From: a virus
Taxonomy: Duplodnaviria; Heunggongvirae; Uroviricota; Caudoviricetes
Virus record (IMG/VR): IMGVR_UViG_2802429253_000003
DNA length: 10,663 nucleotides
Direction: 5' to 3' (one strand)
The notes under the pieces were generated by a model that saw nothing but the letters and a program-made list of their open reading frames with translations, searched no databases and had not been told where the DNA came from. The translations under genes and the position numbers were made by a program. Of the stretch, positions 913 to 10,663 are shown one piece after another. The number at the start of each line of letters is the position of its first letter. Positions within the stretch are counted from its first letter, which is position 1.

Positions 913-1041
913 TCAATTAGCTGCAGGAATGAGAGGCCACTCAGTATCCGGTGCAGTTGATGTATCAACACGGTTCAGCAACACCCGATACTTCTTCCAG
1001 GCTTCCAGCAACGAGGTTTCGCCCTCCGTTGCATATACAGC
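913..1041 (-). pseudogene. tfa: 3'-terminal remnant of a tail fibre assembly gene (Tfa C-terminal domain only, no start codon)
   Basis: The minus-strand frame translates to [42 protein letters not shown] then stop (TGA at 913-915). This matches the conserved C-terminus of lambda-type Tfa proteins as I remember them (..[29 protein letters not shown]..). It is bounded upstream by an in-frame stop at 1042-1044 and has no start codon or RBS. Confidence 0.6.
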
Positions 1042-1050
1042 TCACCTTTT

Positions 1051-1374
1051 TCACCCGCGATTAACCAACAGCCAGACCAGCAGACACGCCACCACCGGCA
1101 CAGCAAAATCCATCAGGCTTGCCACATCCCATGCACGTGGATCAAAACCGCCCCACCACGGCATGTTAATCCGCTTGCCATGCCCGAACATTTCAATCCA
1201 GCGATATTCTGCCTGGGTGTGTTCCCGCGCAATGAAGAATGTACAACCGGCTATCGCCCCGTAAGCCCAGTTTCCGGTAAAAAGACCAACCAGTACCTGC
1301 GCAGCCACAGCACAAAGCGCATGAAGAAAAGGTGTTATATCCATTTTCATCCTACCCAATAAAACGGGGCGCAT
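1051..1374 (-). CDS. Small hypothetical inner-membrane protein (about 97-107 aa, two predicted TM helices, Trp-rich connecting loop)
   Basis: ORF with two hydrophobic helices (ITPFLHALCAVAAQVLVGLF and FAVPVVACLLVWLLV). It starts 11 nt after the stop of the upstream 346-aa gene, preceded by an AAGGG Shine-Dalgarno-like element. Alternative internal starts exist at codons 9 and 11. GC near 55 percent. The plus-strand ORFs overlapping it have implausible composition. No family recognised. Confidence 0.6.
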   Translation of the reverse strand: MRPVLLGRMKMDITPFLHALCAVAAQVLVGLFTGNWAYGAIAGCTFFIAREHTQAEYRWIEMFGHGKRINMPWWGGFDPRAWDVASLMDFAVPVVACLLVWLLVNRG

Positions 1375-1385
1375 AGCCCTTAATA

Positions 1386-2426
1386 TTATTTAGACGCAAG
1401 CGTCGCCTCAATTGCAGATAATCTTTGCCTTAATTCTGCGTTTTCTTCTTCCAGTACTGTTATTCTGTCGTCTGACTCTCTGGCTACCTGAACAAGCAAG
1501 CCAGTAACACCAGAATAATCTACTGTGTAATAACGTTCACCTTCTTCACCTTCCGATCCGCTTGCACCGTCCTGATATTTCATTGCGGAACCTACAACTT
1601 CTGGGATTGCTTCCAGAGCTTCCTGTGCAATGACACCTGCATAGGGCATACCGTTTTCTTTAAGCGTGTATGTATAGCCGTTCATTTTACGGATGCGGTC
1701 GGTTGCATTATCGATCACCTGAATGTTGTCTTTCAGATCCCGGTCAGAATGCTGGTTAAATGCGGTGGCATGACATGCACCATTAACGCTTAACATATAG
1801 GTGTTATCGGTATTTTTCTGCGCATAGAACATATACGCGCCACCATCAGCACCAACTTCATATACAACCGGACGGGTAGAGTTACCCCACAAACTAGTAG
1901 TAGCGCCAGAATGAGCGGTCCCCTGTGTGTTTAATGTCATGGTTGACCCATGATTGGCATATTTGATTTGTAATGTGTCTGTGCAGTCAAACTTAATAAG
2001 CGCGTTACTTCCCCGCACACCATACGACATGAGACAGTTCCCCATCTTAAGGTAACCATCACTGCCTGGAAAAATTAATGTTCCGCCGTAAAGATCGCTA
2101 AAATCCCAAAAGATACCTTTTGTTCCATTGTGTGTGACAATCCTTGTCATTGTATCTTTTGTACCGTCAATATTTTTTCTGGTGTACATCTCACTATAAG
2201 CGTTTTCGGTTTCTCCTGTCTTATTTGACAAGTGAATCTTACCGCTAAATATAGTTCCAGTGGTCGGCAATGTCTTTTGATCATAGATTACATTGCAATA
2301 ACTATTCCATGTTGTTTTATTGTCTACATATGATTTTGTTGCGTAGCTCCCTTGATCGTTTTTTAATTTGCTAACGTCGGATTTTAGCGTTTTGATATCA
2401 TCAGGAATTACTGTCGATGTAGCCAT
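1386..2426 (-). CDS. Tail fibre / fibre-tip protein with C-terminal peptidase-S74-type intramolecular chaperone (autoproteolytic) domain
   Basis: The C-terminal ~120 aa (HSDRDLKDNIQVIDNATDRIRKMNGYTYTLKENG...GVIAQEALEAIPEVV...YTVDYSGVTGLLVQVARE...LEEENAELRQRLSAIEATL) has the hallmarks of the endosialidase-type chaperone domain: an S-D-x-x-x-K Ser/Lys dyad context (Ser227 codon at nt 1746-1748, Lys232) and a terminal coiled-coil. The N-terminal ~225 aa is Gly/Thr/Asn-rich and beta-like, consistent with a receptor-binding domain. Strong RBS (GAGGAAGG) 9 nt spacing from the upstream ORF; GC lower than the core phage genes. Confidence 0.8.
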   Translation of the reverse strand: MATSTVIPDDIKTLKSDVSKLKNDQGSYATKSYVDNKTTWNSYCNVIYDQKTLPTTGTIFSGKIHLSNKTGETENAYSEMYTRKNIDGTKDTMTRIVTHNGTKGIFWDFSDLYGGTLIFPGSDGYLKMGNCLMSYGVRGSNALIKFDCTDTLQIKYANHGSTMTLNTQGTAHSGATTSLWGNSTRPVVYEVGADGGAYMFYAQKNTDNTYMLSVNGACHATAFNQHSDRDLKDNIQVIDNATDRIRKMNGYTYTLKENGMPYAGVIAQEALEAIPEVVGSAMKYQDGASGSEGEEGERYYTVDYSGVTGLLVQVARESDDRITVLEEENAELRQRLSAIEATLASK

Positions 2427-2435
2427 TTTCCTTCC

Positions 2436-2717
2436 TCACATCCAGCCACGAAGTTGATGCTCAACAGCAACCGCGTATTCATCGAATAATGACGATATTT
2501 GCGAATCATTAATGATGCGCACGTTTACAAAATATCCGTCCTCCTTAACACATACCGGCTCGCCATCTTCAGTAAGTTCTCCGGTTTCTTTGTACACATT
2601 ACCTATCACGTCAATAAGAATATCATCCTGCATCGACTCGTCATCATAATAGCCAATACTCTCCATAAAGGCCGAAAAGTCGGCCCTGTCGGCAAATTTG
2701 AGTGTTAAATCTTTCAT
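2436..2717 (-). CDS. Small, highly acidic hypothetical protein (93 aa) translationally coupled to stf
   Basis: Its ATG (2715-2717) overlaps the stf TAA stop (2717-2719) as TAATG. By my count it has about 21 Asp/Glu against 7 Lys/Arg. It sits where tfa is found in lambda but has no Tfa-like motifs. No family recognised. Confidence 0.55.
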   Translation of the reverse strand: MKDLTLKFADRADFSAFMESIGYYDDESMQDDILIDVIGNVYKETGELTEDGEPVCVKEDGYFVNVRIINDSQISSLFDEYAVAVEHQLRGWM

Positions 2718-5092
2718 TAGATTGACTCCCCCATCTGAGCATCAGTCAATGCCTTGTGCCATATTCTGAAATTCCTGACATGACCAAATAAATGACGTAA
2801 CCCGGCTGTAGTCTGGCCTCCAATACGGATAATTGCGGTGTTCTGAATACAGGACCATGTGGTTTTTGTTTCGCTGGATATATGCCCGTTACTTACTGAG
2901 CACGTAGACTGCTCTGACTTTACACGCATCCCCATAACCATTTTTTCAAGCGATGCGTTTTCGTTTACCCGTCTGTTAGCTCCTCCAATATCGCAATAAG
3001 GAAATCCGTCATAATCTGTTGAACGACCGAAGCCAAGAATAATAGCCGCTCCGGTTTGATGACCGCCGGTATCAAAAACACGCGGTGCTGCATTTGGCGT
3101 TTTATACCAGTTCTTATGTACCTCACAAAGAACTGTAAAAGGAAGATTATAAAGGTTATTCTTGATTGGGACTGTCACCATATCGCTTGCGCGAGTGCTT
3201 GCAGTTATATCAGTTACAATAAATGACGAAGCACTTGATCCACCTTCCACTTGTGGAGTTGCGATATCCAGATAGTCTCCAGATGCTGTGCCTGAACCTT
3301 TTACTGGAGCATATTGAACCATCGCACCAATCATGCTCTCTGTATCTAGTGCATTAATTGTAGCCTGATAGAAAATCCAACCAGTAGCCTCATCTTTTAC
3401 AGCTTTTGCAATAATACGATTTGCTGCACCACCAGTCTTATCAATTACAAGTGTTGATAAATTGAGGTAAGCATCTCCCAAAAAAGTGTAAGTAGAACCA
3501 TCATGATGTTCAAATCTTAAACGACACCTTATATTTTCAACATCACTTCTGACACGGCATGAAATGGTCACATATTTTTCATCACCTGTGACATCAAATC
3601 CTTTACTGCCAGAAACCGTTACGATATTAATCGCACTTGTCTGATCAATAAGAGTATCTTTTACAGTAAATCTCCCATAAGTAAAATTAAAAGAATCCGT
3701 GGATATTTCTGTGAGTTCCAGATTGCCTGACTTATTCCATTTAGATGGATTTGTTGAATTAAGCAGAAGATTAGTTCTTTGCCCCTCAATAAGCAGGCCA
3801 TCACGTTCAAATCGCGGCTCGTCAATGGCAGCCTCTGTCAGTACACCAGATTTATTAATATAGGTTGCTTTCGATGCGCGTTTAAACTTTACAATCTTGT
3901 CGCCAGGCATTGTTATTTCATCGTCGCCAATAACAATTTTTTTATATGATGGCGAAAAGCCCGTAATCATATCCAGTGAATCGTTAAACGGTATCCACAC
4001 ATCAGGAAGCGGCTGTAAGACATATTTATACGGCTCTGCTGCCTGGCTTGCGTACTCCCTGGCTGCGTCTTCGCTTGCTTTAGCTGCCGTCTGGCTTGCT
4101 GCCGATGCTTTCGCTGAGTTATCCGCCGCAGTCTCGCTCGCCTTTGCGTTGGTTTCACTGGTTTTTGCAGCTTTTTGACTGTTGGCTGATGCAGTGGCAG
4201 AAGAAGCCGCCGCACTTGCAGAACTGGCTGCGGCACTCTCGCTTTCAGCTGCTGCATCCTGACTGCTTTTCGCCGCAGTTTCACTGGCTTTGGCATTCGT
4301 TTCGCTGGTCTTCGCTGCCGTCTGGCTGGACTTTGCGTTAGTTTCACTCGTCTTCGCAGCTTTCTGGTTGTTAGCCGCAGCAGTTGCTGATCCAGCTGCT
4401 GAAGTCGCAGAACCGGCTGCCGCGCTCTCGCTTTGGGCTGCTGCAACCTGGCTGTTTTTTGCCGCAGTTTCACTGGCTTTAGCATTCGTTTCGCTGGTCT
4501 TCGCTGCCGTCTGGCTGGACTTTGCGTTGGTTTCGCTCGTCTTTGCGGCTGTCTCGCTATTTTTCGCGTTGGTTTCTGATTTTTTGGCTGCTGTCGCGGA
4601 GTTTGCTGATGCAGTCTGTGAGGCCGCTGCCGCCTGTGCACTATTAGCTGCATTCGTTTCTGAGGTTTTCGCCGCGTTCTTCGATGATGCCGCTGCAGTT
4701 TCTGATTTCTTTGCCGCCGCTGCGCTCTGAGAGGCGGCTTCAGCGTTGCGTGCCGCTTCTTCCACCATTTCCTCAAAACGACGCAATGCCTCCGGCATGA
4801 CATCATCTTCCGTCATGGCACCGAGAAAATCATTCAGCGTACCTGGTCTGGAACCTTCATAGACGGTAATGGTCCCGGCATGTGAAGGCGGAAAACCTTC
4901 AACCAGCAGGATGACGCTGTACTGGCCATACTCAACATCCATGCTGTAACGCCCGGCTTCATCCGGATTTTCAGAGGCCACCGTGTTCACCAGTACCGTG
5001 GTGCTGTTACGTTTTGCTTTCAGCTGGATTGTGCAGTTCTGTACCGGTTTTCCTGTGCCGTCTTTCAGTACACCTGAAATCTTTACTGCCAT
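2717..5092 (-). CDS. stf: Side tail fibre protein Stf: lambda-like N-terminal domain, Ala/Ser/Thr-rich repeat shaft, divergent distal domains ending in a putative LamG-like lectin fold
   Basis: N-terminus MAVKISGVLKDGTGKPVQNCTIQLKA... matches lambda Stf as remembered. The ORF track begins at GTG 5098, but the ATG at 5092 gives the lambda-like MAVK start with GGGGTGA upstream. The central region is repeats of the type AAKTSETNAKSSQTAAKTSETNAKASETAAK. The last ~110 aa end in ...GHVRNFRIWHKALTDAQM, resembling the C-terminal signature of LamG/concanavalin-like jellyroll domains. Confidence 0.9.
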   Translation of the reverse strand: MAVKISGVLKDGTGKPVQNCTIQLKAKRNSTTVLVNTVASENPDEAGRYSMDVEYGQYSVILLVEGFPPSHAGTITVYEGSRPGTLNDFLGAMTEDDVMPEALRRFEEMVEEAARNAEAASQSAAAAKKSETAAASSKNAAKTSETNAANSAQAAAASQTASANSATAAKKSETNAKNSETAAKTSETNAKSSQTAAKTSETNAKASETAAKNSQVAAAQSESAAAGSATSAAGSATAAANNQKAAKTSETNAKSSQTAAKTSETNAKASETAAKSSQDAAAESESAAASSASAAASSATASANSQKAAKTSETNAKASETAADNSAKASAASQTAAKASEDAAREYASQAAEPYKYVLQPLPDVWIPFNDSLDMITGFSPSYKKIVIGDDEITMPGDKIVKFKRASKATYINKSGVLTEAAIDEPRFERDGLLIEGQRTNLLLNSTNPSKWNKSGNLELTEISTDSFNFTYGRFTVKDTLIDQTSAINIVTVSGSKGFDVTGDEKYVTISCRVRSDVENIRCRLRFEHHDGSTYTFLGDAYLNLSTLVIDKTGGAANRIIAKAVKDEATGWIFYQATINALDTESMIGAMVQYAPVKGSGTASGDYLDIATPQVEGGSSASSFIVTDITASTRASDMVTVPIKNNLYNLPFTVLCEVHKNWYKTPNAAPRVFDTGGHQTGAAIILGFGRSTDYDGFPYCDIGGANRRVNENASLEKMVMGMRVKSEQSTCSVSNGHISSETKTTWSCIQNTAIIRIGGQTTAGLRHLFGHVRNFRIWHKALTDAQMGESI
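4083..4740. repeat. In-frame tandem direct repeats inside stf (189-bp period, at least two full copies, within a broader degenerate short-unit repeat region)
   Basis: Near-identical DNA at 4276-4340 and 4465-4530 (offset 189 nt, 63 codons), and again at about 4143 versus 4332. These encode the Ala/Ser/Thr-rich shaft repeats of Stf. Confidence 0.8.
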
Positions 5093-5103
5093 ATTCACCC
5101 CAC

Positions 5104-5130
5104 AAAAAAGCCCGCCTGAACCGGCGGGCT
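5104..5130 (-). terminator. Intrinsic terminator between lom and stf
   Basis: Minus strand reads AGCCCGCC-GGTTCA-GGCGGGCT followed by TTTTTT: an 8-bp GC-rich stem, 6-nt loop and U-tract. The U-tract runs directly into the stf ribosome-binding region (GTGGGGTGAATATG). Confidence 0.6.
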
Positions 5131-5156
5131 GTCATAACACTGTGTTACCTGGCTAA

Positions 5157-5756
5157 TCAGAACTTATAACCGACACCCACGATGAAACCGTCAGTGCGCC
5201 AGTCGCCACTGCCGGAGCCTTCATAAGCAATATCAATGGCCACGGATTCGGTCGGGTTAAACTGCACGCCAGCTCCCCACGCCAGAGACGTGTTGCTGTG
5301 GCGACCGTCATCACTTCCGGTCAGCACATCGTGCGTTTTCCCCTTGTTGTCAGTTACGCGAAGATAATCCCCGGAGAAAGTCGACACACGGCTGTAAGCC
5401 ACACCCGCCATCGCATACGCGCTGAACCATTCATTCACGCGCACAGACGGCCCCGCCATCACGCTGAACCAGCGGTTACGCACGGAATCTTCATGCCAGC
5501 GGGTATCGCTGTAATGGGTTTTTTGCTCATCTTTGGCATTGGCATAACTGAATGACGTCACCAGCCCCAGCGTGTCCGTAAATTCATAACGGTATTTCAC
5601 GTTAATGCCCTTCAGGTCATCACTGCCTGGCATATCAGTATGGGTCTGAAGATACCCGGCGCTTAGTGTGGACTGATGCTCTGCTGCGCTCGCTGGCGTA
5701 CCAGCGGCAACCAGCCAGACTACTGCGGACAGAATAACAGCACATAATTTACGCAT
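5157..5756 (-). CDS. lom: Lom outer-membrane protein (Ail/Lom/PagC/OmpX family beta-barrel)
   Basis: 199 aa with an N-terminal signal peptide ([24 protein letters not shown]) and the typical C-terminal ...[10 protein letters not shown]. Near-identical to lambda Lom as remembered. RBS GAGAGGT upstream of the ATG. Confidence 0.93.
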
Positions 5757-5823: not shown

Positions 5824-8800
5824 TCAGCTGATACTGATGCCTGCGGTGGCTTTCTTCATCACCACAACCAGCAAATCGCTGATACTTGCTGTGGGATACC
5901 AGTTATTTACCAGCCATGCTGACACCGAAAACTCCAGTGTCATGTGACCGTGACCGGCAGGCATATCAATAACGCCACTGTAAATCAGCGTATTATCCAG
6001 CGCGGTACGGTTATAAATTTCAGCACCGTTTTTCCGCACTATCAGACGGCATGAGGAGTAAATATCAGTATGCTCTCTCTCATGCTTAGCGCCACTGAAT
6101 GCCACCGCCGGAATAACAATTTGCCGGTCAAACGGCTGATCGTCATAAACCCTGACGGTAATGGTCCCTGATGGCCACCGCTCCGGTGCTCGGGAGTCAC
6201 GGGGGAAAGCTTTGCCCACTGTTTTAACGAGATCGCCTTCAATCTGGTTCGCGGACAGTTTTCCCAGAACCCGACAGTTCTCGTTAATCGTGACGTTGTT
6301 GAGCGTCCCGGAGTTCGCATTCACGTTACCGCTGATATCGGCATTTTTCGCCGTCAGCCGCCCGTCCGGCGTCAGGGAAAATGCAGGAGGATTACCGCCG
6401 CTGGTGATGGTCGGGGCCGTCAGACGCTTCAGGAACACGTCGTTCATGAATATCTGATCGCCCTGACCAACAAACATCGGCTTTGTGTTGCCATTCGCAG
6501 GATTAATCATCGCAATCCTGTCCGCCGCCAGCAGCACCTGACTCTGCATACCGTCAGGAGTATTCTCAATACCGGCACCAATACCCGCGATATAAAGGCG
6601 TCCGTCCTGCATCTGCTGCAGCTTCACAGCCCACATGCTGTTCAGGTTATTATTTGTATCAACCTGAACCTTCTGTATCTGCTGGATCGCTGCACTCTGG
6701 TCTTCCAGTTTCTTATTGACGGTCTGCGTGATTTCATTGCTGACACCCGTAATGGACGTCCTGATTTCAGCCAGGTCAGGCGCAAGCTGACCGTTATCAA
6801 TCTGCGTCCACAACTCCTGAGCCAGATGGGTTTTCCCTATCTCTCCTTTGAAAAAATTCAGATAGCCGGATGCATCATCACTCGGCTGGCCAACAGCCTC
6901 CACAAATGCCGATTTGCCAACGGTGTTCACACTGCGGATGTAAAAATAATAATCATGGCCCGGTTTGATATTGATACTGGCGGCTATCCAGTACAGCGCC
7001 GTGCCAAGATAGCGTGCTGTGGTTTCAACCTGCCTGATATCCGCAATCCGCTTTTCCGAGAACCAGAACTCAAACTGTACCGTCGGGTCATAAACCGCAA
7101 GATGCGGCGTGGCGGTTATCTGAAAATAGCCCGGAGTCAGCTCAATCTGTGACGGCGCTGCCGGTGCGGCAATCCGGAACGATACCGACGCCGGGTCTCC
7201 CTGCTGCCCCCAGGCATTTACTGCCCGGACTGTCAGCCTGTAGTTCCCCAGCGCCAGCTGCCTGAAGCGGTATGTTGTTTCCGTCGTCCGGGCCGTGCTG
7301 ACCAGCCGCTCACTGCCGTCGTCCGCTGTTACGGTCAGACGGAGCAGGAAGCTCACGCCCTTCACCACCTTCGGTGTGTCCCATCGCGCCAGCACCTGAT
7401 ATTCCCCGCTGTCTGCATTGACTTCTGCGGTCAGGTGCTGCACCGCGGGCGGCGTGACACCGTTCACCGTTCCGCTCTGGTCGCCGTCAAAGTGCGCCCC
7501 GTTATCCACGATGGCTTCTTTCTCCGGTACATGCTGCACGGCAGTGATGGCATACGTGCCGTCATCGTTCTCACGGATACTCACGCAGCGGAACAGGCGC
7601 TGGCGCAGCGTCGGCAGCTTCAGCCCCCACACGCTGTATTCTGCAACGCCGTCAGGAACACGACTCACTTTCACCTTCACGCCGTCGGTGACGGACTGAA
7701 CCTCCACGCTGACCGGATTACCACTTCCGTCAACCAGGCTTATCAGCGTGGTACCGGAGGATGGCAGCGTGATTTCACGGTCGAGCGTCAGCGTCCGGGT
7801 CTGGCTGTTCACCGCCAGCACGCGACCACCGGTGCTGATACCGGCATAGTCATCATCGCAGATTTCAATAACATCGCCCGGCACATGGCGAAGCCCTTCT
7901 GCGCCCACGCTGAAATCCACGGTCTGCGTCTCCAGCAGTTCCGTTTTAATCAGCCACAGCCCGGCGCGGTGTGCCTGCCCCCGGCTGGTACAGCCAAAGG
8001 CATCCATCTTCGTGACATTACGACCGTAACGGGCAATGGCCTGCGTATCTTCAACAAGCTCTGTCGCCGTCTCCCAGCCGTTATTCGGGTCAATCCAGTT
8101 CACCTCAACGGCATTATGGCGGTCCTTCAGGGCGCTGAAGCTGTAGCGGAACGGCGCGCCATCATCCGGCATCACCACATTACTGCGGTTATAGGTCCAC
8201 ACCTTATCCGACGGTCGGTCCTGCACGAACGTCAGCGTCTGCCCGTTCCATACCGGCATACAGCGCATCGCCGAGCAGAAATCGCTGAGAACATCCCACG
8301 CCTTACGCTGCGTGGTCAGGTAAGCGTTACAGGTGATGCGCGGCTCCGTGCCACCAAAGCCATCCGGCACCGACTGGTCGCAATTCTGGCCGATGACATA
8401 CAGCGCCCATTTATCCACATCCGCTGCACCAAGACGTTTCCCCATGCCGTAGCGCGGATGGGTCAGCATATCCCACAGACACCAGGCCATGTTGTTGCTG
8501 TATGCCGGTTTAAACGTTCCGTCCCAGATACCGCTGTATTGTCGCGTCTGCGGGTTATAGTTCGACGGCACCTGCAGAATGCGCCCGCGCAGATGATAAT
8601 TACGGCTCACCTGCTGGCTGCCGAACTGCTCCGAATCCACCTGCACGCCGACCAGTGCCGTGTTCGGGTAGCACTGTTTCACATCGATGATTTCGGTGTA
8701 TGACGACCAGAGCGTTTTGTTCTGCAGCTGGTCTGTGGTGCTGTCCGGCGTCATCCTGCGCATCCGGATATTAAACGGGCGCGGCGGCAGGTTACCCACC

Positions 8801-9303
8801 ACCACCGAGGCCAGATACTGCGAGGTGGTTTTGCCCTTAATGGTGATGTCTTTTTCCGTCACCCAGCCACCGTTACGTTGTATCTGAACCAGCAGGCGGA
8901 CTTCCGATGGATTCCTGTCCCCCTTTGAGGTGGTTTCCACCAGTGCCTGCACACCGAAGGTAAAACGCAGACGGTCGATGTTTGCCGACGTGATGGTCCG
9001 GGTGATCGGCGTGTCGTATTTCACTTCCGTACCCAGTACCGTCTCGGAACCTGATGATTCAAATCCCTCCGGCGGTGTCTGCTCCTGCTCACCTGCCCGG
9101 AACACCACCGTGACACCGGAGATGTTGGTATTCCCCTCACTGTCCAGCACCGGTGTACTGTTCAGCAACACGCTTTTTAATCCATCCCCCGGACCTTCAA
9201 TCGGCCCTTCGCTGATGGCATCGATCACACTCAGCAACTGCGTGGATTTCAGGTTGTCCTTCGCTTCGCGCGGGGTATGCCCCTTACTGCTGCCTTTACC
9301 CAT
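5824..9303 (-). CDS. J: Tail tip / host specificity protein J (central tail fibre)
   Basis: 1159 aa. The N-terminal ~800 aa ([38 protein letters not shown]...) is recognisably lambda J. GGAG Shine-Dalgarno about 9 nt upstream of the ATG. The C-terminal part appears more divergent from lambda J as I remember it. Confidence 0.95.
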
Positions 9304-9325
9304 TCGTCATGCTCCATAAACGACA

Positions 9326-9345
9326 AAACCGCCCGGAGGCGGTTT
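9326..9345 (-). promoter_or_regulatory. GC-rich hairpin in the I-J intergenic region (AAACCGCC-CGGA-GGCGGTTT)
   Basis: Seen in sequence: 8-bp stem, 4-nt loop. On the minus strand it is followed by TGTCGTTTAT and then the J Shine-Dalgarno. It lies inside the late operon, so it is more likely an RNA structural or attenuating element than a full terminator. Confidence 0.3.
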
Positions 9346-9363
9346 CACATAAAATATTTTGCA

Positions 9364-10011
9364 TCATCGACCAATCACCACAACCTGACCACCATCCCCT
9401 TCGTCTGCCGTGCTGATCTCCTGAGATACCACGCGTGACCCCACGCGCATTTCACCGTACAGAACGGGCAGAACATTCCCCTGGGCAACCATGTTATCCA
9501 GTGAGGAGAAATACGTGTTCTGTTTGCCGTTATCCGTTGTCTGTGTGCGGGGAGTTCTGGCTTTCGGTGCCAGCATCTGCGCCACACCGCCCAGGATCAT
9601 ACTGGCCCCTACCGCATACATACCCGATACAGCCGCGACACCCAGCCAGCCCACAGGGTTCCACCATGCCACCGCAATCAGCGCAGCCCCCAGCACTGCC
9701 TGAAAAACACCGCCACTTTTGGCACCCGCCAGACGCGGTACGATGTGGATCACGGCACCATTTGCCAGCGGCTCATTAAGACGGGCAGATAATTCGTTTT
9801 CGCCTGCATCACGCCCGGCAATGCGCACCTGATACCAGCCCTCATTCAGTTTCTGACGAAACGCCGGGAGCTGCGTGGCCAGCGCCCGGATAGCTTCGGC
9901 TCCCGTTTTCACACGAAGGTCGATGCGGTGGCCAAATCGTTGCAAATCCCCGTAAAGGCAGATGCGTGCCATGCCCGGTGACGCCAGAGGGAGTGTGTGC
10001 GTCGCTGCCAT
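9364..10011 (-). CDS. I: Tail assembly protein I
   Basis: 215 aa. N-terminus MAATHTLPLASPGMARICLYGDLQRFG... and C-terminus ...VLPVLYGEMRVGSRVVSQEISTADEGDGGQVVVIGR match lambda gpI as remembered. The start lies inside the 3' end of K. Confidence 0.9.
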   Translation of the reverse strand: MAATHTLPLASPGMARICLYGDLQRFGHRIDLRVKTGAEAIRALATQLPAFRQKLNEGWYQVRIAGRDAGENELSARLNEPLANGAVIHIVPRLAGAKSGGVFQAVLGAALIAVAWWNPVGWLGVAAVSGMYAVGASMILGGVAQMLAPKARTPRTQTTDNGKQNTYFSSLDNMVAQGNVLPVLYGEMRVGSRVVSQEISTADEGDGGQVVVIGR

Positions 10012-10652
10012 TTGTCGGTATACCTCTCTCGTTTGCTCAGTTGTTCAGGAATATGGTGCAGCAGCTCGCCGTCGCCGCAGTAAATGGCGGCATGATTCGG
10101 CACCGATGAACCAAAGCAGCACAGCAGCACATCGCCCGGCTGCGCCTCTGTCAGTGCGGCACGGTAAAAACCAGTCGCCTCCATATTGTCAAGATAGAGA
10201 TTCTGGCCGTTACGCCACCAGTCATCCCCGCGATGAAAATCCGGCATCTCAATTCCCGCCAGATGGTAAGCGTCCCGGAACAGCGTGTAACAGTCCGTCA
10301 CCCCGTGCTCAAAGCGCCGCCCGGTGAGATGCGGCACACAGCGGAACTTATGAATCGCCCCCCGGCAGACCAGCCACCACGGCAAATCACTCTGCACCTG
10401 CAGCCGCCGGTCGGCCTCACTCAGCCAGGGCAGACCACCGGGATGACTGTGGACCAGCGCCACAATCTCACCCTGCATTTCTGCCTGCAGCCAGTCCTCC
10501 GGCGACATCCGGAAATAATCCTCCGGCTCACCGGAAATATTCACGCAGGGAAAATATCTTTCCCCCTCCGGCGTTCTCACCACGAAGCCGCACGACTCCG
10601 CTGGCGCACATCGCCGGGCGTGCGCCAGAATCGCTGATTCTGTCTCTGTCAT
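9909..10652 (-). CDS. K: Tail assembly protein K (MPN/JAMM domain plus NlpC/P60-like domain)
   Basis: 247 aa. JAMM motif HSHPGGLPWLSEAD (H-x-H-x7-S-x2-D) and a C-terminal NlpC/P60-like Cys/His context (GVTDCYTLF ... NHAAIY). It overlaps I by 103 nt in another frame, the same overlap length as I recall for lambda. Confidence 0.9.
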   Translation of the reverse strand: MTETESAILAHARRCAPAESCGFVVRTPEGERYFPCVNISGEPEDYFRMSPEDWLQAEMQGEIVALVHSHPGGLPWLSEADRRLQVQSDLPWWLVCRGAIHKFRCVPHLTGRRFEHGVTDCYTLFRDAYHLAGIEMPDFHRGDDWWRNGQNLYLDNMEATGFYRAALTEAQPGDVLLCCFGSSVPNHAAIYCGDGELLHHIPEQLSKRERYTDKWQRRTHSLWRHRAWHASAFTGICNDLATASTFV

Positions 10653-10663
10653 GGGATTTATAT

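Follow-up and report, generated by a model that had tools for sequence, protein, structure and literature searches.

The fibre-gene region of a 10,663-nucleotide (nt) stretch of Caudoviricetes DNA (IMG/VR record IMGVR_UViG_2802429253_000003; this whole stretch is called the window) encodes a lambda-like side tail fibre protein (Stf), a small acidic protein (orf93) and a fibre protein that ends in a Peptidase_S74 domain (ORF346). On balance, we favour reading this region as a bipartite side fibre, branched or serial, that bears two receptor-binding heads and relies on an assembly factor or adaptor other than Tfa. The distal part of stf, orf93 and orf346 travel together, in T5-, T1- and 9g-like phages too, and the gene that follows them in the window, orf107, is separate. 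ORF346 is best read as a self-maturing second receptor-binding fibre, predicted from its sequence, with a stretch of about 27 amino acids (aa) at its N-terminus as the probable means of docking. All coordinates are positions in the window, and the features of the fibre region lie on the minus strand unless stated. Those that carry the argument are as follows.

2717-5098, minus strand: stf, 793 aa, with a phage_tail_N match on residues 3-133 (Pfam).
4743-5098, minus strand: 5' part of stf, residues 1-118, phage_tail_N attachment domain (PF08400), 87% identical to lambda.
4034-4742, minus strand: stf shaft, residues ~119-355, Ala/Ser/Thr-rich repeats, GC-rich, with no lambda nucleotide match.
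3764-4033, minus strand: conserved Stf junction, residues 356-445, where the low-GC graft starts (nine-fibre alignment, GC break).
3188-3793, minus strand: Stf residues 436-637, a head of the gene transfer agent (GTA) head-spike-fibre type, allelically variable (NF048003, profile, AlphaFold2).
2717-3187, minus strand: Stf residues 638-793 and stop, variable again except for the ~33 residues at the end, which are conserved (alignment).
2436-2717, minus strand: orf93, a 93-aa acidic alpha/beta protein, translationally coupled to stf.
1386-2426, minus strand: orf346, a 346-aa Peptidase_S74 fibre protein.
2346-2426, minus strand: orf346 residues 1-27, the N-terminal peptide MATSTVIPDDIKTLKSDVSKLKND, conserved and proposed to serve in docking (alignment, IMG/VR loci).
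1761-2345, minus strand: orf346 residues 28-222, variable putative receptor-binding part (allele variation, phrog_4563).
1386-1760, minus strand: orf346 residues 223-346 and stop, Peptidase_S74 intramolecular chaperone (PF13884, Ser227/Lys232 dyad).
913-1041, minus strand: 3' remnant of tfa, 42 codons and a stop.

A sequence-only reading of this DNA had proposed that distal stf and tfa were replaced in modular fashion as a host-range determinant, and comparison with lambda (blastn against lambda nucleotides 13000-24500) together with base composition bears this out. Nucleotide identity to lambda is 92% over 6807-10660 (K, I and most of J), 76% over 6274-6637 and 87% over 4743-5284 (the end of lom and the first 118 stf codons). 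It ends at 4743, near Stf residue 118, with no blastn match to lambda between 1034 and 4742, and returns only at 1033-934, the 100 nt of which are 95% identical to the last 100 nt of lambda tfa. A second, compositional boundary lies at about 4033 (Stf residue 355). The shaft has a GC content of 0.56 and a third-codon-position GC (GC3) of 0.68, compared with 0.41 and 0.31 in distal stf, 0.42 and 0.44 in orf93, 0.42 and 0.38 in orf346, and 0.54 and 0.53 in orf107; the tfa remnant has a GC of 0.54. With a core GC of 0.41-0.42 against flanks of 0.51-0.60, and a core GC3 of 0.31-0.44 against 0.53-0.68, the compositional graft is delimited to 1386-4033, comprising distal stf, orf93 and orf346 and leaving orf107 outside. 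The break originally placed at 3900-4000 thus stands as a change in composition at about residue 355, and not as the lambda identity breakpoint, which is at 4743.

The scar of the replacement was also recognised correctly as a start-less remnant of tfa. It is 86% identical at the amino acid level to Tfa residues 156-191 of 194, has a stop codon directly upstream and no start codon, and lies three genes downstream of stf; the identity and the upstream stop show that the remnant is real. PGAP calls the same scar a pseudogene in E. coli IAI39, and a tfa remnant follows orf107 in 29 of the 80 IMG/VR loci that were recovered with orf93. Because Tfa residues 156-191 are the only survivors, the cognate downstream Tfa gene that accompanies a lambda Stf is missing. 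None of orf93, orf346 and orf107 matches a Tfa family in Pfam, in agreement with the initial view that these three open reading frames (ORFs) lack Tfa features and do not form an Stf-Tfa arrangement.

The ORFs are closely packed. A single base is common to the stf stop and the orf93 start (TAATG), and spacers of 9 nt and then 11 nt separate the next ORFs as called. All four (stf, orf93, orf346 and orf107) are intact in the window, and their products are full-length members of PHROG families 1419, 1361, 4563 and 1443, respectively.

The N-terminus of Stf is a lambda-type anchor, matching PF08400 with an E value of 3.8e-68 (228 bits against a cut-off of 26.6), and its alignment profile matches a solved tail fibre N-terminal chain (9e7m, E 1.5e-18). 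Over residues 3-330 the protein is 59% identical to lambda orf-401. Internal repeats were found by blastn in the shaft at 4070-4651. Two long ORFs that overlap stf at 3967-4806, one of 279 aa on the minus strand and one of 146 aa on the plus strand, arise artefactually from the Ala/Ser/Thr-rich repeats of the shaft. PGAP splits stf into pseudogene pieces at the repeat region in several RefSeq E. coli genomes, and the gene is intact in the window.

Beyond the shaft, an alignment of nine fibres, lambda-, T5-, T1- and 9g-like fibres among them, divides the Stf tip into four zones. Residues 361-440 are 72-100% identical across these fibres, with variable flanks; residues 441-640 (22-100%) and 641-760 (20-100%) are variable; and the end of the protein, residues 761-793, is again conserved (67-97%). 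The GTA_spike_fiber family (NF048003) is recognised on residues 436-637 with 59.2 bits against a curated cut-off of 36, and a profile built from 53 homologues matches the RcGTA head spike fibre Rcc01080 (6tb9) with an E value of 1.5e-8. In an AlphaFold2 monomer model of distal Stf, only residues 446-620 reached predicted local distance difference test (pLDDT) scores of 70-95, with scores below 50 elsewhere. Foldseek searches with this confident domain returned, with modest scores, carbohydrate-binding modules (CBM4/6/22/28) and the tail fibres of Pseudomonas phages Pa193 and E217, and the fold is a CBM-like jelly roll rather than LamG. The family match, the RcGTA profile and the CBM-like fold together support a lectin-like tip for the middle domain. 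This is where the suggested lectin-like Stf tip holds; at the extreme C-terminus, a Laminin_G_3 match on the last ~50 residues scored 17.3 bits, below its cut-off of 27.6, and pLDDT is below 50 there.

orf93 is as acidic as had been described, with an isoelectric point of 4.05, and its start overlaps the stop of the fibre gene in every case. The Stf tip lies upstream of it in 80/80 IMG/VR loci, and across these loci orf93 hardly varies (94-99% identity), in contrast to the Stf tip (40-100%). Phages 21 and ev243 have Stf, orf93-like and orf107-like genes and no S74 gene, and rV5-like phages carry an orf93 homologue overlapping the fibre gene, again with no S74 gene downstream, so the association of orf93 is with the type of tip and not with the second fibre. 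Three features point to a tip-specific assembly factor: the gene is translationally coupled to that of the fibre, it strictly co-occurs with the tip, and in the lambda context Tfa has been lost. orf93 is probably such a factor, or an adaptor, standing in for Tfa. The gene is called "hypothetical" in every record, and a Pfam scan gave no match on either orf93 or orf107.

ORF346 matches the "tail fiber protein" family phrog_4563 (E 3e-208). Its chaperone domain, the presence of which had been predicted, is recognised by PF13884 on residues 227-278 (E 6e-14, 52.4 bits against a cut-off of 22), and the region also has a weak PDB match to the T4-type long tail fibre tip 6f45. S74 domains are intramolecular, self-cleaving chaperones of their own protein (Pfam PF13884). 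A Ser-Lys dyad is present as SDRDLK at residues 227-232, in the S-x4-K spacing that we take to be the one described for endosialidases. No virion-anchor domain such as PF08400 was found in ORF346 by Pfam. When the protein was aligned with its counterparts from six other phages, conservation among the seven sequences, which span four phage groups and lengths of 234-581 aa, was confined to the chaperone domain and the N-terminal ~27 residues; the middle was unrelated between alleles. The IMG/VR loci give the same picture: the N-terminal peptide begins 13 nt after orf93 in 78/78 loci that extend far enough to be informative and is 62-100% identical, and the middle swaps alleles, with identities of 37-100% or no match at all. 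The middle of the counterpart in the T5-like phage FGS017 matches the receptor-binding parts of LtfA (47% identity) and LtfB (44%) from DT57C, with the homology starting only after the N-terminal peptide. A constant peptide between exchangeable heads is the pattern expected of a docking element and also of a recombination handle, and the two are compatible.

The same four genes occur in the same order in phages Tritos, 2G7b, PhiR63_1, HannyBb and PhiR46_1. The first four of these are plaque-forming, and the occurrence of the cassette in plaque-forming or induced phages speaks for its being functional. At least 89 complete E. coli genomes align over 90% of the window at 95-96% identity. The exact ORF346 sequence was found in 308 blocks of the assembly collection, always preceded by K, I, J, lom, Stf and orf93 and followed by a 95-97-aa protein, and a 481-nt block that takes in orf93 together with the adjoining Stf C-terminus and ORF346 N-terminus is present in 1034 of 5426 complete E. 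coli genomes (19%), in up to five copies per genome. The three-gene core is found in the same order in a T5-like Salmonella phage, where it follows ltfC and is 92.8% identical in nucleotides over the Stf tip, in the Nonagvirus ESCO3 and in Drexlerviridae (XY3/swan01); it is present in the Seuratvirus VogelGryff as well. Fibres with a P2-type N-terminus (PF03406/PF12571) carry the Stf tip as well, as does the fibre of an rV5-like myovirus (46% identity), next to which lies an orf93 homologue. Several "Listeria" and "Campylobacter" phage records, often very short, contain near-identical coliphage orf93 or LtfB-like genes, which suggests that they are mislabelled or contaminant sequences in the public collection.

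These distributions change two parts of the sequence-only reading. It had treated the arrangement as unusual, and the window's copy is in fact an ordinary one, one more instance of a very common E. coli prophage mosaic, given that isolated phages, at least 89 complete E. coli genomes and all 78 informative IMG/VR loci have the four genes, and that the junction block is present in 19% of complete E. coli genomes. It had also grouped four genes into one cassette, from which orf107 has to be removed, having a GC of 0.54, belonging to temperate backbones and being absent from virulent carriers of the module. The configuration is therefore common in frequency and not well annotated in function, the records giving "tail fiber", "tail protein" or "hypothetical". 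The description of an uncharacterised adhesin or assembly system remains apt for the functions, with orf93 and orf107 called "hypothetical" and no paper characterising this fibre module found in literature searches that were not exhaustive; lateral fibres made of at least two proteins are already published (PMC4728585, PMC8594841).

In the mechanism that we propose, orf93, orf346 and the part of stf that begins at about residue 356 would have entered a lambda-like tail operon by recombination, as one low-GC module of three genes for a lateral fibre, replacing the lambda-like distal stf and most of tfa and leaving the last 42 tfa codons as a scar. Judging from homology, the lambda-like N-terminal domain of Stf would anchor the fibre to the tail tip. 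Each Stf chain would end in an RcGTA-spike-like, putatively polysaccharide-binding head, homologous to the spike fibre and presumed to share its kind of ligand, which would be one host-range determinant. ORF346 would form a second, shorter trimeric fibre that folds with its own S74 chaperone and is cleaved at Ser227. From the pattern of conservation, its 27-residue peptide may plug onto a conserved part of the Stf tip, onto orf93 or onto both, and the outcome would be a branched or serially extended fibre with two receptor specificities. orf93, which is coupled to stf and accompanies the tip even where there is no S74 gene, may act as a Tfa substitute, an assembly factor or an adaptor. orf107 would lie outside the fibre, as a membrane protein at the end of the tail operon of temperate phages and probably a prophage moron. 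A wider version of this idea, which we put forward tentatively and with some doubt, is that the Stf C-terminus (~33 residues) and the S74 fibre N-terminus (~27 residues) form, together with orf93, a universal plug and socket, with orf93 as a new class of Tfa-replacing adaptor or chaperone, by means of which lambda-, T1-, T5-, 9g-, Dhillon- and rV5-like phages mount and exchange second fibres on a sugar-binding tip.

Several points weigh against the bipartite fibre. No physical evidence was found for contact between Stf and ORF346, for the presence of orf93 inside or outside the virion, or for cleavage at Ser227. The lectin signal of Laminin_G_3 at the extreme Stf C-terminus is below threshold, and pLDDT is below 50 on Stf residues 356-445 and 621-793, so that the model does not visualise the supposed socket. 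The N-terminus of DT57C LtfB is unrelated to that of ORF346, and the docking chemistry can thus not be borrowed from DT57C. The ~460-nt block formed by the end of Stf, orf93 and the beginning of ORF346 could be conserved partly as a recombination handle and not as a protein interface.

Other explanations of the locus were weighed against the same observations. orf93 may be a virion adaptor that bridges the Stf tip and the N-terminal peptide of ORF346, and not a non-structural chaperone. This is a serious alternative, even if on present evidence we think it rather unlikely: no other elements of the locus are as conserved as orf93 and the peptide, which always adjoin each other, the 94-99% identity of orf93 where the Stf tip falls to 40% fits a socket better than a client-specific chaperone, and the weak structural neighbours of orf93 include adaptor proteins such as MecA. 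However, phage 21, ev243 and the rV5-like phages keep orf93 coupled to the fibre gene without any S74 fibre downstream. That ORF346 is independent of Stf, attached elsewhere on the tail tip (to J or a collar site) or released as a free secreted or decoy protein, with a linkage that is only genomic, seems improbable. Tail fibre genes often cluster without their products interacting, no contact of ORF346 with Stf has been shown, and low-contour density in DT57C suggests that LtfB can fold back onto the tail tip (PMC10713586). The same peptide is, however, found across lambda-, T5-, T1- and 9g-like phages, which have different tail tips and share as partners only the Stf-type tip and orf93, and it adjoins both of these in 78/78 loci.

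A third possibility, that ORF346 is a trans-acting chaperone of Stf and not a receptor-binding fibre, is highly improbable. It is the function named in the VogelGryff and ESCO3 annotations ("putative lateral tail fiber chaperone", "endosialidase chaperone"), and Stf has no chaperone domain of its own, with tfa destroyed; yet S74 domains are known as intramolecular and self-cleaving, phage 21 and ev243 have this type of Stf and encode no S74 protein, and the part of ORF346 before the S74 domain is long and allelically variable, with the FGS017 version homologous to the receptor-binding regions of LtfA and LtfB. The presence of a tfa pseudogene, the abutment of the tail region on an unrelated AT-rich GGDEF gene with no integrase in view, and the stf genes marked as broken by PGAP in several E. 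coli genomes could all be taken to mean that the cassette is inert debris of a decaying prophage and makes no working fibre. We regard this as very unlikely, as the four ORFs are intact, the exact ORF346 sequence recurs in those 308 blocks, and the same cassette, including the tfa scar, is present in viable phages such as Tritos, 2G7b, HannyBb and PhiR63_1.

The bipartite fibre has its closest parallel in the T5-like phages DT57C and DT571/2, the tail fibres of which are branched and L-shaped and consist of LtfA and LtfB (Golomidova 2016, PMC4728585; Ayala 2023, PMC10713586). The lateral fibres of T5-like phages and small siphoviruses can be built from one, two or more proteins (BASEL, PMC8594841). 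Like the window, DT57C encodes a long tail-anchored protein and a shorter second protein just downstream, each with a receptor-binding part and the second ending in S74; as in such a two-gene system, Stf carries the PF08400 anchor and ORF346 has no anchor domain. In the T5-like FGS017, the module of the window occupies the ltfA/ltfB position after ltfC. However, LtfA of DT57C ends in an S74 domain of its own, whereas Stf of the window ends in a GTA-spike-type head; DT57C has no orf93 between its two fibre genes; and LtfB has an N-terminus unrelated to that of ORF346, whose conserved MATSTVIP peptide is absent from both LtfA and LtfB. Homology of the docking parts was considered and rejected, since blastp showed no significant similarity of distal Stf or the ORF346 N-terminus to LtfA or LtfB, and ORF346 aligns with these proteins only weakly in the chaperone domain and nowhere else. 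The lack of docking homology, the S74 end of LtfA and the absence of orf93 make the two systems different variants of one type of device.

With the Stf-Tfa system of Ur-lambda the window has in common the N-terminal attachment domain, the position after lom and a terminator, and the lambda-like K, I and J genes. It differs in that the fibre is replaced from residue ~119 (by nucleotide identity) or ~356 (by composition), Tfa is reduced to 42 codons, and orf93 and an S74 fibre are added. Rcc01080 of RcGTA binds host capsule polysaccharide and is anchored by a short N-terminal peptide (PDB 6tb9/6tsu; PMC7296036). Its distal domain is homologous to the Stf head, but it is a single chain on the capsid vertices, whereas in the window the domain is joined to the tip of a trimeric side fibre of a siphovirus, with orf93 next to it. 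K1F endosialidase and T5 pb1 have a C-terminal S74 chaperone like that of ORF346 with its Ser-x4-Lys dyad; in contrast, ORF346 is short (346 aa) and has no attachment domain, just a 27-residue conserved N-terminus. The same logic, in which a second receptor-binding protein plugs in through a short N-terminal element and heads are exchangeable, is found in G7C gp63.1/gp66, the CBA120 tailspikes and the Klebsiella KP32-type phages (PMC13579863). Those anchor-branch systems belong to podoviruses and myoviruses, however, and use tailspikes with T4gp10-like docking domains, and no sequence relationship of these to the window was detected.

Side and lateral fibres decide which O-antigen and capsule types a siphovirus can pass, and they are swapped when lambda-derived particles are engineered for delivery to wild E. 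coli. About one fifth of complete E. coli genomes contain the module, and so do virulent coliphages of several families, BASEL phages included. If the peptide and orf93 do form a conserved socket, they would already provide what is needed for adding or exchanging a second receptor-binding head without Tfa, and the movement of heads between unrelated phage families would be explained.

The remaining tail features of the window are these.

9909-10652, minus strand: K, lambda-like (ORF list).
9364-10011, minus strand: I, lambda-like (ORF list).
5824-9303, minus strand: J, which like K and I is lambda-like (ORF list).
5157-5756, minus strand: lom, Ail_Lom match (Pfam).
5109-5130, minus strand: terminator-like hairpin between lom and stf, with an 8-bp stem of which 7 pairs are GC, then a T run.
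1051-1374 as called, or 1051-1344 from the probable start, minus strand: orf107, a small membrane protein.

The tail core had been called lambda-like throughout, and this holds for K, I and most of J. The last third of J (5824-6806) has little or no nucleotide identity to lambda J, indicating that the receptor-binding end of the central fibre has also been swapped, independently of the stf graft. lom is mostly non-lambda in nucleotides (5285-5756), and Lom is 46% identical to lambda Lom. The hairpin that separates lom from stf is a strong one, so the fibre genes should need read-through (late antitermination) to be expressed. A promoter and terminator scan returned sites no more numerous than in shuffled sequence, and independent transcription of orf107 is neither supported nor excluded by it. 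A GC hairpin with a T-rich run lies at 1366-1380, between the orf346 stop and the probable orf107 start, and may be a weak terminator that sets orf107 apart from the fibre operon.

The original call of a small membrane protein is confirmed for orf107 by two strongly hydrophobic 19-residue stretches, within residues 3-24 and 74-95. Its homologues are 95-97 aa long and all begin at Met11 (ATG at 1344, with AGGA upstream as a good ribosome-binding site), and phrog_1443 matches from residue 11 (E 8.5e-59). The real protein is accordingly 97 aa and lies ~41 nt after orf346, so that of the gene spacing first described the start-stop overlap and the 9-nt and 11-nt ORF spacers stand, and a true gap of 11 nt before orf107 does not. 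The gene was found in 70 phage records, mostly temperate and including P22-like podoviruses, in which the homologue follows the tailspike and an O-antigen acetylase (O-acetylase) gene, and it is absent from the virulent phages that carry the fibre module. From these contexts orf107 is probably an accessory gene ("moron") of temperate-phage backbones and not a fibre component, and it may act in lysogenic conversion or exclusion. It is called "hypothetical" in every record, and neither it nor orf93 matched the PADLOC models of known anti-phage defence and superinfection exclusion (E <= 0.01). The window's orf107 shares its reading frame with the tfa remnant, and only Lys-Arg-stop stands between them.

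Scans of the window for tRNAs and for Rfam families returned no match, and thus no RNA feature or tRNA attachment site at a prophage edge. Past the tfa remnant, an intergenic stretch (819-912) separates the tail-gene side from a plus-strand gene for a MASE4-GGDEF diguanylate cyclase (1-818, GC 0.32), which is truncated by the left edge of the window and converges on the tail genes. The gene has no megablast match in the 5426 complete E. coli genomes, and a GTDB scan with it returned distant GGDEF proteins only. Its identity with DgcX or another known E. coli cyclase was ruled out by the lack of an E. coli nucleotide match and by a best protein identity of ~40-42%, to DgcT. The gene may belong to a host of another species or to an island, or it may be cargo in the b region of the prophage. 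Beyond orf107 in phage 21, ev243 and PhiR46_1, the opposite strand carries cargo that differs from phage to phage (a SitBCD metal transporter, a methyltransferase with a hydrolase, or ParAB), a variability that fits the GGDEF gene as possible cargo of the same slot.

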